A stretch of 64,000 bases of DNA, taken from positions 853 to 64,852 of the forward strand of contig CALMVK010000007.1 of assembly GCA_937873145.1 (NCBI GenBank), written 5' to 3'. Below, piece by piece: positions 40,288 through 44,761 of the stretch. This DNA is from an uncultured Granulicella sp. GTDB lineage: Bacteria > Acidobacteriota > Terriglobia > Terriglobales > Acidobacteriaceae. The position numbers and the translations under genes were made by a program. Position 1 is the first letter of the stretch. Every line of letters begins with the position of its first letter. The notes under the pieces were generated by a model that saw only the letters and a list, made by a program, of their open reading frames with translations, was not told where the DNA came from and did no database searches.

Positions 40288-40659
40288 ATGGCAAAGGCAA
40301 CGGAGATAGGTGCGGCGAAGCTTTTCCGGTGGGCGGAGATGGAGCCTGAACAGATGAATCCGCTGCTGACGCGGCAGTTTTGCTCGGGCGAGCAGGCGAT
40401 GATTGGGCGCGTAATGCTGAAGAAGGGATGCGTGGTGCCGGAGCACAGCCATCCCAACGAGCAGCTGGCGTATATCGTCACGGGTGCGCTGGAGTTTGTG
40501 ATCGGCGGCGTGACGCAGGTGGTGCGGGCGGGCGAGGTGCTGGTGATCCCGGCGAACGTGCCGCATGCGGCCACGGCGCTGGAAGATACCGAGGACCTGG
40601 ATCTGTTTGCTCCGCCGCGGCAGGACTGGATCGACCAGAACGACAGCTATCTGCGCTAA
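40288..40659 (+). CDS. cupin domain protein
   Basis: VPEHSHPNEQ, IPANVPHAA, DLFAPPRQDW. Confidence 0.85.
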   Translation: MAKATEIGAAKLFRWAEMEPEQMNPLLTRQFCSGEQAMIGRVMLKKGCVVPEHSHPNEQLAYIVTGALEFVIGGVTQVVRAGEVLVIPANVPHAATALEDTEDLDLFAPPRQDWIDQNDSYLR

Positions 40660-40669
40660 GCGGTTGGCG

Positions 40670-40940
40670 AGACCATTTTACCTTCAGGTGTAGTTGCCGA
40701 ATCGCAGTCTGAGCCATGCTGTTGCCTCTTGAGCGGTAATGGTGTTGATTGCGTGTGCGGTGGCAGTTCGAGCTGCGGCATGGCTCTGGCGGCGAGGGCG
40801 CGCAGCCTGGCCTTGAGCTTGGACCAGGCTTTTTCGATCGGGTTGAGGTCGGGCGAATAGGGCGCGAGCCATCCCTCCATGCTCAACCTCAACTCAGAGC
40901 CTGCAAGAATCGAGGCCTGTACCCCACGGTAAATTGGTCT
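40670..40940 (-). mobile_element. internally deleted IS630-family element (MITE-like) with both terminal inverted repeats
   Basis: TIRs AGACCATTTTACC (40670-82) and rc AGACCAATTTACC (40928-40); frameshifted transposase tail PYSPDLNPIEKAWSKLK / ITAQEATAWLRLRFG. Confidence 0.82.
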
Positions 40941-41856
40941 AGCGCTTCTGCTTTCCAACCTTTGCAGCTGTGTTCGGCTTCTGCGACGACAGATCAGCCA
41001 TGGCCGCGCGGAGACGTAGCACGGCTGACGTATGAACTTGCGAAACACGGGACTCAACCACTCCAAGCGTCAGTCCGATCTCCTTCATCGTCAGCTCTTC
41101 GAAGTAGTAGAGAGTAAGCACCATTCTCTCCTTCTCTGGCAATTCTTCTATGGCTTCTGCGAGCCGCTGCTTCATCTCTCCCTTGAGACATCTAAAAAGG
41201 GGTTCGTCTTCCACTGAGGTAGGAATGTAAGCCAGTTCCTCATCACCAGAATCTTCCGAGCGCTCCAGGTGGAGTGTACCGATCTCCAAACCTTTAAGAT
41301 CACCCAGCAGCACCTGATACTCCGACAGAGAGACTTCGAGCTCCGTAGCAATCTCCTGCTCTACAGGTACCCGGCCTAGCCGCTTCGTCGTGCTCCGAAT
41401 CGCTTCTTCTACGGCCCGACCCTTGCGACGGAGCTCACGCGGACCCCAATCTACGCTTCGCAGGGAATCAAGGATTGCGCCACGGATGCGGAACTGCGCG
41501 TAGCTCTTGAACTGAACTTGTTTGGTGTAATCGAACTTGGCAAGCGCGTCGATCAAACCTACAATTCCTGCCGAAACGAGCTCTTCGAGCTCCACGTGCT
41601 GCGGAAGGCGTTCATGGATGTTTCTCGCAACGTAACGCACCGTCGGAAGATGCTCCATCAGCAATTGCTCGTGTTCTGCGGCAGTGAGTGCACTAGCAAC
41701 GGTCTCTGCTGGCTTGCGCCGCGACTGTTTGGCAGCAGAGAAACCAGAGACTGTCGGAAGCGCCGTTACTGCCTCTTCGAAAACCAGCCCGCACATGGCT
41801 GCATTCTGATCCTGCATCCCCAACATGGCTACCGGCAGTACGTTTCCCATTTCCAT
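40939..41856 (-). CDS. fliA: FliA/WhiG family sigma factor (sigma28)
   Basis: HERLPQHVELEELVSAG, YAQFRIRGAILDSLR, LTMKEIGLTLGVVESRVSQVH. Confidence 0.92.
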   Translation of the reverse strand: MEMGNVLPVAMLGMQDQNAAMCGLVFEEAVTALPTVSGFSAAKQSRRKPAETVASALTAAEHEQLLMEHLPTVRYVARNIHERLPQHVELEELVSAGIVGLIDALAKFDYTKQVQFKSYAQFRIRGAILDSLRSVDWGPRELRRKGRAVEEAIRSTTKRLGRVPVEQEIATELEVSLSEYQVLLGDLKGLEIGTLHLERSEDSGDEELAYIPTSVEDEPLFRCLKGEMKQRLAEAIEELPEKERMVLTLYYFEELTMKEIGLTLGVVESRVSQVHTSAVLRLRAAMADLSSQKPNTAAKVGKQKR

Positions 41857-41927
41857 TGCTTTTCTCCTCACAGGTGTGTCCTGTATGTGGTTTGCGCTTG
41901 ACCGCGCATCTGAACACTTAGGAGAAG

Positions 41928-41943
41928 AGCAAGCGAAGGGCCA
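41928..41943 (-). promoter_or_regulatory. sigma54 -24/-12 promoter of fliA
   Basis: TGGCCC-TTCGC-TTGCT (GG-N10-GC) ~70 nt before fliA, with an AT-rich tract upstream. Confidence 0.65.
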
Positions 41944-42251
41944 TGGTTTCGCTTTTTCTTCTTAATGTTTTCTTAGATGTTTCGCTTTTCAGCTTTGCCA
42001 TTCATACTCACCCGCAACTCCCATCGTGACGCACCAGCGATCAAGTGACACTAAGTCCCTTCATAGACTAGAAGACCGGCTCGCGGGAGCTTTCGGAGCA
42101 ACCGCCGCTTCCTCGCGCATCGTCAACTCAGTAAAGCTAATCGGGCCATCGATATTGAGTCGTCGGTCTATCCGGAGAGATTGCACCCATGTCAGAAAGC
42201 TCGCAGGGCCCAGTGCCGAGCGGCACCAGAGTCTAGAAACGGCCGCCGATT

Positions 42252-43448
42252 TTACCTCCGGCGCAGGACAATCTCTGCAGGCCCGATCTCCGGCCGATCC
42301 TCAGCCAGGATTGAACCTCGCTCGAGAACATGCATCAGCTCTCTGACATTTCCTGGCCACGAATAAGCAGTGAGAAGATCCAAGGCTGCAGAAGCTACCC
42401 TCTTTCTCGGCATCTGTTTTGCCAGCTCATCCAAGAAGAAGTCGACCAGGCTGGGCAGATCCTCAATTCGCTCGCGAAGAGCTGGTACAGTCAGCGGAAA
42501 CACTGCCAGACGGTGATACAGATCTAAGCGGAACGCTTTCTCTTCGGCCCGCTGCTCAAGCGGCTGGTGCGTGGCCGCGATAACTCGCACATCGACGCGA
42601 GCCGTTTCATTGTCCCCAACACGCTGAAGTTCGCCGCACTCCAGGAAGCGCAGCATTTTGGCCTGCAACGCCAGCGGCATCTCACCGATCTCGTCTAAGA
42701 ACAGAGTTCCACCATGAGCGGCCTCGATTCGACCTACGCGTGACTGAACAGCCCCTGTAAAAGCTCCTCGCGTGTGTCCGAAGAGCTCGGCTTCTAACAG
42801 AGACTCCGGGATAGCGGCGCAGTTCAGAACCACAAGGGGCTTCGTCGAGCGGGAACTCAATCGATGCAGCGCCTTCGCCACTACCTCTTTTCCAGTGCCA
42901 GTCTCGCCTTCAATTAAGACGCTCGTCGAGCGTGGCGCAACCAGGCGAATCATTCTCGATAGCTCGAGCATGGGAGCACTCTCGCCGATCATCTCCGGTA
43001 GACCGACGCGGACGGGTGTGGGAGCGAGCCGTGCAATGGAAGTTGAACCATGTCGCTGCGCCTTCGCTACCGTCGGTGCCATCTGCTGAGCTTCGCGCAG
43101 TGCATGCAGCAGCTCATGACGACGCGGACTCTTCGCCTGGCAACGAATGCGGTCTGCGTTGCCGTCCGCCGAGAGAACCTCCATCCCCGGGTACATCAGA
43201 CACATTTGCTGGGCGAACTCACCAGCCTCCAGGTCCGGAAGCCACTCGTCTAGAAGCAGCACCTCTGGCTGTTCGGCTTCCACCAAGGCCATGGCTTCCG
43301 CACCCCCGCCAGCTTCTCGCACTCTCCAACGAAGGGTAGTTAAGGCAGCGGTGACGCGATGTCTCAGAGCAAGATCGGCTCCTGCTATGACAGCGCTCCG
43401 TGTCGCCACAGAATCTTCATGGGTTGCCAAAGCGCTTGAAGTCTCCAT
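42252..43448 (-). CDS. sigma54 activator (receiver + AAA+) without C-terminal HTH
   Basis: LLDEWLPD, GETGTGKE, GAFTGA, LFLDEIG, WPGNVREL; ends about 20 aa later. Confidence 0.9.
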   Translation of the reverse strand: METSSALATHEDSVATRSAVIAGADLALRHRVTAALTTLRWRVREAGGGAEAMALVEAEQPEVLLLDEWLPDLEAGEFAQQMCLMYPGMEVLSADGNADRIRCQAKSPRRHELLHALREAQQMAPTVAKAQRHGSTSIARLAPTPVRVGLPEMIGESAPMLELSRMIRLVAPRSTSVLIEGETGTGKEVVAKALHRLSSRSTKPLVVLNCAAIPESLLEAELFGHTRGAFTGAVQSRVGRIEAAHGGTLFLDEIGEMPLALQAKMLRFLECGELQRVGDNETARVDVRVIAATHQPLEQRAEEKAFRLDLYHRLAVFPLTVPALRERIEDLPSLVDFFLDELAKQMPRKRVASAALDLLTAYSWPGNVRELMHVLERGSILAEDRPEIGPAEIVLRRR

Positions 43449-43460
43449 ATTTTCCTGCCA

Positions 43461-43709
43461 TCATCCGTCTTCGTCCAAATACTGCTGCATTGATCGAATG
43501 TGGACGATCATCCGCTCACACTGCTGCAATCCCTCCTCAACAGCGCGCCGCATCTCTACCTGCTCCCACACGCCGCCCGGAGTATGCTGCGCGGCCAGAA
43601 AGAGTCTGCACTGTAAAGCTGTTAGCGGCTGACTCAGATCGTGTAGGGCATCCTGCATCCAGTCTTGCAGGGTTTTGTCCGGCGTCGATTGCCCAAAAGT
43701 GCTATGCAT
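43461..43709 (-). CDS. stand-alone HisKA/DHp-like protein, 82 aa
   Basis: DALHDLSQPLTALQ H-box, helical, no ATPase domain; ATG overlaps upstream stop. Confidence 0.7.
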   Translation of the reverse strand: MHSTFGQSTPDKTLQDWMQDALHDLSQPLTALQCRLFLAAQHTPGGVWEQVEMRRAVEEGLQQCERMIVHIRSMQQYLDEDG

Positions 43710-44508
43710 AGGCACTCGTCTCGGCACGATCGCGCGCCTTTGCCAATCCATTCGCACCGGTTGCCTGCAGGTGAAGCGGGGCTGGCAGAAAACTCTGAAA
43801 GGACTCATGGGGATGGAGGGAGATTGCGTAGCCCTCTCCACGCACTGTTTCGATCACCCGGTCTGCTGGTTCAGACGAAACAGGCTTATTATCTATAACT
43901 TGCGCGAGCTTTTTCCGAAGATAGTTGATGTACACGTCCACCACGTTCGTTCCGGATGGAGGTGCCGACTGCCAGACCTCGCGGAGCAGTTCGCTGCGTC
44001 CACAAGGCCGGCCGCGCGCGAGGACAAGATATTCGAGCAGCGAAAACTCCTTGGACGTTAACTCGACGGCTCGGCCTTGCCGCTTCACGGTTCGCTGGAT
44101 ACGATCCATTTCGAGGTCACCGACACAAAGAGTCGAGGCAGCCGATTGATGACTTCGCCGAAGCAGCGCGCGGCAACGTGCCGTCAGTTCACTAAAGCTG
44201 AAAGGCTTAGGAAGACAATCGTCGGCACCTAGATTCAGGCAATGTACACGAGACTCCACGCCATTTCTTCCAGTCAGCACGAGCACAGAGGTTCCAGGAC
44301 ATTGTCCCTGCATGCGCTGCAGTATTTCAAGCCCATCCATTTCAGGTAAACCCAAATCCAAAACGAGCAGATCCGGTGCGTGTAACAACAAAGACGCCAG
44401 CCCCGTGCGGCCGTTACTCTCCAGCTCTACCTGATGCTTCTCTAAAGTCAGACCTTTCGCAATGAAATGTCCAAGAGCAAGGTCGTCCTCAAGAATCAGT
44501 ATGCGCAT
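43702..44508 (-). CDS. OmpR-family response regulator
   Basis: ILEDD, LVLDLGLP, GADDCLPKPF, LTSKEFSLL, NVVDVYINYLRKK, TVRGEGY. Confidence 0.92.
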   Translation of the reverse strand: MRILILEDDLALGHFIAKGLTLEKHQVELESNGRTGLASLLLHAPDLLVLDLGLPEMDGLEILQRMQGQCPGTSVLVLTGRNGVESRVHCLNLGADDCLPKPFSFSELTARCRALLRRSHQSAASTLCVGDLEMDRIQRTVKRQGRAVELTSKEFSLLEYLVLARGRPCGRSELLREVWQSAPPSGTNVVDVYINYLRKKLAQVIDNKPVSSEPADRVIETVRGEGYAISLHPHESFQSFLPAPLHLQATGANGLAKARDRAETSAYA

Positions 44509-44733
44509 GCTTTCCTCCATCAGTCCAACAGTTCGGGGTAATGACGGTCCGCGTTTTTGCTGTCAACGTGGCCTGTCATAACCATCAGGCTTCCAAACCT
44601 GCGGAACAAGCAGAAACGTCTCACTTTCCTCATAGCCATTCCAAAATGGAACCAACCGAGCCGAAACGACTCGCTTCTAGCTGTTTCTTCTCCAACTTCT
44701 GTGGGAGAAGGTGCAAAAAGCCCGAACTTTTTC

Positions 44734-44761
44734 TTGCTTTTCGCTTTCTATTCGCTACAAT
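44734..44761 (+). promoter_or_regulatory. lexA promoter with candidate LexA direct-repeat operator
   Basis: TTGCTT-N16-TACAAT-N6-ATG; TTCGC at 44740 and 44751 (11 bp period) in the spacer. Confidence 0.55.

Follow-up and report, generated by a model that had tools for sequence, protein, structure and literature searches.

The window studied here comprises 64,000 nucleotides (nt) of one contig (C7) of the 344 that make up the 4.18-Mb genome of an uncultured Granulicella sp. (Acidobacteriaceae). It encodes, ahead of a gene for the sigma-28 factor FliA, a sigma-54 activator of 398 amino acids (aa) which natively lacks the DNA-binding domain that is usual at the C-terminus, one of helix-turn-helix (HTH) type. 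In our view this protein is probably a functional activator, or bacterial enhancer-binding protein (bEBP), that would take its place in the flagellar hierarchy while acting without a DNA-binding domain of its own. The gene starts at an ATG at 43448, with AGGA preceding it, and stops at a TAA at 42252-42254, and its parts are as follows.

42252..43448, minus strand: sigma-54 activator gene, 398 aa, with truncated receiver, linker, AAA+ domain and lid, and no HTH (open reading frame, Pfam, NCBIfam and PDB searches)
43083..43400, minus strand: truncated receiver-like domain, residues 17-122 (alignment, Pfam, AlphaFold2 model, homologues)
42993..43082, minus strand: variable linker, probably disordered, residues 123-152 (alignment, AlphaFold2 model)
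42492..42992, minus strand: sigma-54 interaction AAA+ domain, residues 153-319 (Pfam PF00158)
42255..42476, minus strand: AAA+ lid (residues 325-389) with a brief Arg-rich terminus, IVLRRR (Pfam AAA_lid_14, orthologue C-termini)

Domain content and ancestry of the activator

In a Pfam scan of the protein, the Sigma54_activat domain (PF00158) covered residues 153-319 with 228 bits against a cut-off of 20.2, followed by AAA_lid_14 at residues 325-389 with 62 bits. Walker A (GETGTGKE, residues 181-188, nt 42885-42908), Walker B (LFLDEIGE, residues 249-256, with the DE pair at 252-253) and the GAFTGA motif (residues 228-233, nt 42750-42767) are intact, and these motifs, together with the arginine residues and the sensor motifs, are invariant over 50 aligned homologues. 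Sequence matches in the PDB were to the AAA+ domains of NifA, ZraR, FleQ and NtrC1, with E values from 1e-66 to 1e-72. With PF00158 above threshold, intact GAFTGA and Walker motifs, one rpoN gene in the genome (C146:7118-8848, found with a regular expression for the RpoN box) and promoters of the -24/-12 type, the protein falls in the class of sigma-54 activators.

What is missing is the DNA-binding domain. The Pfam scan found no HTH_8 (PF02954) in the 398 aa of the activator, and neither reading through the stop nor translating the other two frames of 41872-42330, with stops as X, gave any HTH_8 match at E<=10, only the lid domain. The positive control for this kind of scan was the genome's own FleR-like activator, which yielded 48.5 bits for HTH_8 and 94 bits for Response_reg. 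The protein ends in ...WPGNVRELMHVLERGSILAEDRPEIGPAEIVLRRR*, 27 residues beyond the WPGNVREL motif. For comparison, 12 loci of the same genus were set beside 11 from public assemblies of Acidobacteriaceae and Terriglobales, and all 22 intact orthologues, from Edaphobacter, Terracidiphilus and related metagenome-assembled genomes, end 24-32 residues past WPGNVREL, none of them with an HTH. In a collection of 5.8 billion proteins, the 120 homologues that ranked highest, 356-497 aa long and 62-100% identical, were likewise without PF02954; tails were 27-42 residues long in the 117 of these that contain the WPGNVREL motif, against 80 residues or more in all 49 activators of other phyla recovered by the same search. 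In a maximum-likelihood tree of AAA+ cores, all 23 HTH-less proteins, including a paralogue from this same genome, formed one clade (100/97) nested among HTH-bearing activators, with an HTH-bearing protein from Thermoanaerobaculia (Acidobacteriota) as its weakly supported sister. Since the tails of orthologues and homologues are all short and the HTH-less proteins form a single clade among HTH-bearing ones, we conclude that the Fis-type DNA-binding domain was lost once, in the common ancestor of the family and before its diversification.

A recent nonsense or frameshift mutation, which would have removed an HTH still carried by the orthologues and left a pseudogene, has a negligible probability. 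Past the stop, the same frame reads ...SGAARHWALRAF..., with a faint likeness ('AARHWALRAF') to the AARxLGxSR part of Fis-type HTHs, but this likeness is not kept in L002, the orthologue 89% identical to the activator, and the DNA downstream of the activator is unconserved even in comparison with that close relative. The silence of all frames at E<=10 and the short tails of the 22 orthologues and 117 homologues point the same way. A hidden or decayed HTH downstream was rejected on the same grounds, as was a split gene with the HTH in a separate open reading frame, the 380-nt gap that follows the activator holding no conserved frame. One might take as a trace of an HTH-bearing ancestor the protein P0213 (556 aa, NCBI/ENA), from a single 4,270-bp contig, which joins the family's N-terminal domain (45% identity) to a FleR-like AAA+ domain and HTH_8. 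Of the 157 representatives found to share the N-domain at E<=1e-10, it alone carries HTH_8, and it forms a singleton cluster; we rejected it as an ancestral form and regard it either as a chimera of assembly or as a natural recombinant of the two activator genes that lie side by side.

An earlier note, made from the letters of the window alone, had already read Walker A, Walker B and GAFTGA as intact and the Fis-type HTH as missing, and both statements are confirmed here. It had proposed an HTH_8 search and a comparison of orthologous C-termini, and had named what would speak against its reading: orthologues with an HTH, and a recent nonsense or frameshift mutation with HTH codons in 41950-42250. 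The search and the comparison gave the results above, and nothing of the kind was found. The early stop was also correctly noted, although its distance from WPGNVREL is 27 residues and not about 20. The same note had taken the receiver aspartate as intact, which holds for the residue itself but does not extend to the receiver as a whole, as described below.

The short tail past the lid is rich in Arg and Lys in the genus of the window (IVLRRR, IRLRMDRRR, IRIRRRPRS), and in most homologues (L001-L013; the 117 homologues) the last 10 residues hold 3-5 basic ones; activators of the Terracidiphilus type end in IDFGMxVN. Such a basic tail might confer a weak, non-specific affinity for DNA.

At the other end of the protein, Pfam Response_reg reached 21.3 bits, under its cut-off of 30.2, and aligned over profile positions 9-74 of 111. 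The phospho-acceptor position is occupied by Asp67 (GAC, 43248-43250), which is D in 115 of 117 homologues and E in the other two. The acidic pair that follows beta1 is replaced by G-A in this protein and by S-A in most relatives, and it was never acidic in the 91 homologues scored; when the protein was aligned to two canonical receivers from its own genome, their conserved Thr/Ser and Lys had no counterpart. An AlphaFold2 model built on 50 homologues shows beta1-alpha1-beta2-alpha2-beta3-alpha3-beta4 and one more helix over residues 17-122, with a predicted local distance difference test score (pLDDT) of about 88, and lacks alpha4-beta5. The model is poor over residues 206-315, where the alignment is shallow and of close relatives, and its interpretation is confined to the N-domain and the lid; it superposes on the receiver and AAA+ activators NtrX, LuxO, NtrC4, NtrC1 and FleQ. 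The linker has a pLDDT below 50 at residues 126-145, and in orthologues is rich in Pro, Ala and Ser and varies from about 20 to 100 residues. The surface of the N-domain carries strongly conserved motifs (LRWxVREAxGGAE, D-x-WLPDLE and RSPRRxELLxALR), a pattern which suggests contact with a partner rather than phosphotransfer. The domain is a pseudo-receiver, in spirit nearer to those of FleQ, FlrA and FlbD than to that of FlgR, and its phosphorylation is unlikely. Because the receiver scores below threshold and the HTH is absent, the NtrC-family label (receiver, AAA+ and Fis-type HTH) does not fit, and database names of homologues such as 'DNA-binding NtrC family response regulator' are over-annotations. 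In practice these public names mislead, for a protein with no DNA-binding domain and a degenerate receiver that probably cannot be phosphorylated.

Flagellar context and promoters

Downstream of the activator, on the same strand, lie the following features.

40939..41871, minus strand: fliA (sigma-28) paralogue, probable start ATG 41856 (NCBIfam TIGR02479, FliA_WhiG, 238 bits against a cut-off of 189.6)
41872..42251, minus strand: activator-fliA intergenic region, no Pfam domain in any frame (L001/L002 alignment, L093)
41928..41943, minus strand: sigma-54-type promoter TGGCCCTTCGCTTGCT, TGGCCC-N5-TTGCT, about 70 nt upstream of the fliA start

An OmpR-type regulator and the activator, then fliA, are found at L001, L002, L005, L006, L013, L023 and L093, the last an 81%-identical orthologue on a 4.0-Mb contig where the identical gene set, including an 82-aa frame between regulator and activator, was called independently. 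In Edaphobacter bradus (L094, GCA_025685645.1), the genes that come after regulator, small frame and activator are flgB, flgC, fliE, fliF, fliG, fliH and fliI. The patterns of open reading frames suggest the flgB-fliI arrangement in loci of the Terracidiphilus type as well, there without the small frame, and the same flagellar synteny at L015, L016, L019 and L022.

The single flagellar cluster of this genome is on contig C221 and starts with motB, a second OmpR-type regulator and a second HTH-less activator, which is 47% identical to that of the window and has the same degenerate receiver. It continues with a histidine kinase, a FleR-like activator (receiver and HTH_8), flgB, flgC, fliF, fliG and fliI, and further on with flhB, flhA, a second fliA (C221:60474-61268, directly after flhA), flgF and flgG; the stretch from flhA to fliA in this cluster showed no FleN/FlhG gene. 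The paralogous module (C221:39750-44609) thus comprises OmpR-type regulator, HTH-less activator, histidine kinase and FleR-like activator with canonical receiver and HTH_8, and its order matches the fleQ-fleS-fleR-fliE order of Pseudomonas. The fliA copy of the window is extended at its N-terminus by about 65 residues and is preceded by a sigma-54 promoter. A second flagellar system, which would account for the second fliA and the second regulator/activator pair, was rejected, as fliF, flhA, fliI and flgE occur in one set only. Just downstream of the fliA of the window there is a remnant of an IS630/DDE_3 transposase (LAPYSPDLNPIEKAWSKLK; Pfam DDE_3, 29 bits over 25 residues; 40656-41066, minus strand, mainly 40750-40870), which may mark the rearrangement that separated the regulator/fliA block from the flagellar cluster.

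The fliA promoter TGGCCCTTCGCTTGCT has the exact GG-N10-GC spacing. It is the same in L002 and differs by one base in L093, and equivalents precede fliA in L005 (TGGCAT-N5-TTGCA) and L006 (TGGCAT-N5-GTGCT). The pattern TGGCCC-N5-TTGC[AT] has only 10 sites in the 4.18-Mb genome, and besides the fliA promoter two of these are flagellar, one 34 nt upstream of flgF and one 62 nt upstream of the operon that follows flgE (its first frame unannotated). The chance expectation of such a site in the 380-nt gap, in the right orientation, is about 5e-4. Between L001 and L002, the two closest orthologues, the first 230 nt or so past the activator stop are full of substitutions and indels, whereas the last 130 nt or so before fliA, comprising promoter and leader, are nearly identical, and almost invariant from about -75. 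This divergence beside a preserved promoter argues, as far as sequence conservation can tell, against a distal enhancer, and leaves room for a factor binding just upstream of the promoter. In the activator-flgB gap of Edaphobacter bradus (L094, 9258-9402), a terminator-like hairpin (GCGCCCTC-N6-GAGGGCGC) and a T-rich tract are followed by TGGGCACTTAAGTGCA, a weak -24/-12 candidate with the correct GG-N10-GC spacing about 25 nt before the ribosome-binding site of flgB.

Operon neighbours and proposed mode of action

Upstream of the activator, two more genes complete an apparent operon.

43702..44520, minus strand: OmpR-family response regulator (Pfam Response_reg, 79 bits, a canonical receiver; Trans_reg_C, 77 bits)
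43461..43709, minus strand: His-box mini-protein, 82 aa, resembling the dimerisation and histidine phosphotransfer (DHp) domain (open reading frame, profile searches)

The OmpR-type gene opens the apparent operon, with lexA divergent upstream of it, and the order is OmpR-type regulator, His-box protein, activator, the 380-nt gap and fliA. Of the 22 other related loci, 20 offered upstream DNA, and in these an OmpR-type gene immediately precedes the activator, as one also precedes the paralogue on C221. The start ATG of the mini-protein overlaps the stop of the regulator (ATGCATAG) and its end lies 13 nt before the ATG of the activator, so that translation of the three genes is coupled, or close to it. 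The mini-protein was found in 12 loci of the genus, which are most of them, and Edaphobacter bradus has it too, whereas L005, L006, the loci of the Terracidiphilus type and other genera lack it; it was called independently as a gene of 82 aa in L093 and 78 aa in L094. Over 11 orthologues there is no variation at His23, Gln27, Pro28 or Cys34; six of these 11 members are matched by Pfam HisKA (best E 3e-6), and profile matches to the DHp domains of FixL, EnvZ and QseC are weak. The Pfam scan found no ATP-binding domain in it. No kinase gene adjoins the activator, the operon holding only the His-box protein; a full histidine kinase does adjoin the C221 paralogue, where it is paired with the FleR-like activator.

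Immediately upstream of the -24 element (41946-41987, minus strand) stand two copies of AAGCGAAAC, 33 nt apart, which contain an AGCGAA motif, and AGCGAA-N5-AGCGAA is found upstream of the OmpR-type gene (44732-44748, minus strand), the motif being also present on four other contigs. These repeats were rejected as an OmpR-type operator: the pair with 11-bp spacing occurs five times genome-wide, in unrelated intergenic regions, and is probably a dispersed repeat.

We propose that the activator is co-transcribed with the OmpR-type regulator, and in this genus with the small His-box protein, and that its AAA+ ring would remodel sigma-54 RNA polymerase once this is in place at -24/-12 promoters of flagellar genes. 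One predicted target is the fliA promoter, some 300 nt further downstream; the TGGCCC-type promoters that precede flgF and the further operon of the cluster are probable ones. The result would be a cascade from sigma-54 to sigma-28 resembling that downstream of Vibrio FlrA. As it has no DNA-binding domain, the activator would most likely engage the closed complex from solution, in the manner of Helicobacter pylori FlgR. Since the pseudo-receiver is unlikely to be phosphorylated, control would more likely lie in the amount of protein, the operon being driven by the phosphorylated OmpR-type regulator, in partner proteins that dock on the pseudo-receiver, or in both.

Several observations weigh against this proposal. 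The genome encodes at least seven sigma-54 activators, two of them HTH-less, and an activator free in solution would be in danger of switching on all sigma-54 promoters alike. The constant presence of the OmpR-type regulator beside the gene is compatible with a DNA-bound partner, as is the strict conservation of about 60 nt just upstream of the -24 element. The retention of Asp67 in 115 of 117 homologues leaves space for phosphorylation-like chemistry or an Asp-dependent contact, and at several orthologous loci the DNA that directly follows the activator lacks a strong sigma-54 promoter. The number of activators and the invariable linkage to an OmpR-type partner, in particular, caution against a simple model of action from solution.

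In this line, the activator might instead be brought to flagellar promoters by a DNA-binding partner and be enhancer-dependent through it, a possibility that we consider somewhat unlikely. The partner could be the co-operonic OmpR-type regulator, possibly bridged by a dimeric His-box mini-protein docking on both receiver-like domains, or else the HTH-bearing FleR-like activator in a mixed ring, by analogy with FleT and FleQ in Rhodobacter, which set a precedent for partner-dependent activators lacking a DNA-binding domain (PMC3162934). Such targeting in trans would fit the linkage and near-coupling of the three genes, the need for specificity among so many activators, the stretch upstream of -24 conserved in close relatives, and the position of the FleR-like gene two genes from the paralogue. 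However, the pseudo-receiver lacks the alpha4-beta5-alpha5 face, the usual surface of receiver dimerisation, the mini-protein cannot be essential as it is missing from L005, L006 and the Terracidiphilus-type loci, no FleR-like gene was seen beside the activator in other genera, and the AGCGAA motif near the promoter is probably a dispersed intergenic one and not a flagellar operator. A more elaborate form of the idea, which we hold as doubtful, sees in the trio a split enhancer-binding machine made of a phosphorylatable OmpR-type regulator, a free dimeric DHp mini-protein and a pseudo-receiver activator devoid of a DNA-binding domain. In such a machine phospho-sensing and the choice of DNA target would fall to the winged-helix regulator, which would tether the AAA+ motor to flagellar sigma-54 promoters through contacts among receiver, DHp and pseudo-receiver. 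If true, this would explain the promoter specificity of a tail-less activator among at least seven, and would represent a coupling of the OmpR family to sigma-54 of a kind that we did not find described in the literature searched.

Two further explanations put flagellar activation itself in question. The activator could serve a non-flagellar regulon and merely adjoin flagellar genes, given that its surroundings in the window (lexA, uvrB and amtB-glnK) have no link with motility and that about half of the same-genus loci have no fliA in the 1.5-kb flank. This is quite improbable, as fliA or flgB-fliI follow the activator wherever the flank sufficed, the fliA promoter is of the sigma-54 type with a -24 variant common to promoters of the flagellar cluster, and the paralogue sits inside that cluster. 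It is still harder to credit that the protein is a non-activating modulator, one that would titrate sigma-54 or poison the rings formed by other activators, a very improbable role which the missing DNA-binding domain, the degenerate receiver and the position of the paralogue next to a complete kinase/activator pair could suggest: motifs kept invariant over 50 homologues follow the pattern expected of a working, sigma-54-contacting ATPase, unlike that of dead paralogues. A functional flagellar activator continues to be the reading that we favour.

Relation to known activators and significance

Activators without a DNA-binding domain are a recognised class, amounting to about 4% of activators (PMC3162934; PMC7175178), and FlgR acts without DNA binding (PMC3930126). 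H. pylori FlgR, of the FlgS/FlgR system (group-5 or type Ic bEBP), shares with the activator of the window the order of receiver-like and AAA+ domains, the lack of any domain for DNA binding at the C-terminus, the flagellar context and a presumed enhancer-free action on the sigma-54 closed complex (PMC3930126, PMC7175178). FlgR however has a canonical receiver phosphorylated by FlgS, whereas the receiver described here is truncated and no kinase is adjacent, so that of the group-5/type Ic traits the native absence of the HTH was found, and neither a canonical receiver nor a cognate kinase. NCBIfam NF049963, the model for Campylobacter FlgR, scored 212.5 bits against a cut-off of 750, below NorR (345), NtrC (328) and NifA. 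The genomic settings also differ: FlgR is the sole activator known in H. pylori, while this genome has at least seven, and here the adjoining predicted target is fliA. The earlier note had proposed an independent, FlgR-like flagellar activator working without an enhancer. Its flagellar link is supported by the genes downstream (fliA or flgB-fliI) and the sigma-54-type promoters, and its independence from FlgR by the model score and by the nesting of the clade among HTH-bearing proteins, on which this point rests because the AAA+ tree was built without FlgR and CtcC; the likeness to FlgR, in the sense of a canonical receiver with a partner kinase, is not supported. Independence from an enhancer is a prediction, tempered by the number of activators in the genome and by the OmpR-type neighbour, which may supply DNA targeting in trans. 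CtcC of Chlamydia (CtcB/CtcC) similarly combines receiver and AAA+ domain without a DNA-binding domain (PMC3162934, PMC7175178), but with a canonical receiver, an adjacent kinase and a non-flagellar role.

Pseudomonas FleQ and Vibrio FlrA resemble the family in their N-terminal receiver-like domain, which is not a phospho-acceptor, in the fleQ-like position of the paralogue before a kinase/activator pair and flgB-fliE-fliF, in the superposition of the AlphaFold2 model on FleQ, and in a fliA predicted to depend on sigma-54, as that of Vibrio depends on FlrA and RpoN (PMC3930126). FleQ and FlrA nevertheless have an HTH and bind DNA, and the activator of the window gave no match to the FleQ domain (PF06490) or to HTH_8 at E<=0.1, which places it outside this class; the likeness is one of position and architecture only. 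The post-Walker-A residues R185 and N186 of FleQ, which bind cyclic di-GMP, are K and A here. FleT of Rhodobacter (Cereibacter) sphaeroides is another flagellar bEBP devoid of a DNA-binding domain; it exists alongside a flagellar activator that does bear an HTH (PMC3162934). It has no N-terminal domain at all and works with FleQ, whereas the present family keeps its N-domain and in most genera has no HTH-bearing partner adjacent. With Caulobacter FlbD the family shares the flagellar context and perhaps an activity set by a protein partner, which for FlbD is FliX (PMC3930126). The NCBIfam FlbD model matched residues 153-394 of the activator with 254 bits, far under its cut-off of 750, and FlbD, unlike this protein, binds ftr enhancer sites through its HTH. 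The receiver-like domain of FlbD likewise has no known kinase.

Altogether, a family conserved across Acidobacteriaceae that combines a truncated pseudo-receiver, no DNA-binding domain, an obligate OmpR-type neighbour and a position at the head of flagellar genes appears to be undescribed in the literature searched, and in one genus the His-box mini-protein appears as a further part of this combination. Our search retrieved no paper on flagellar regulation in Acidobacteriota, a field that appears to be unstudied. The known but uncommon type of activator represented by Helicobacter FlgR and Chlamydia CtcC is in this way extended to a new phylum, and under different circumstances. CtcC is the sole activator in the Chlamydia genome (PMC3162934). 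In genomes with a single known activator, such as those of CtcC and FlgR, specificity is not an issue; where, as here, at least five other activators accompany two tail-less ones, specificity must come from partner proteins, promoter variants or dosage. The family is a concrete candidate for the activator that would couple sigma-54 to sigma-28 in a dominant phylum of soil bacteria.

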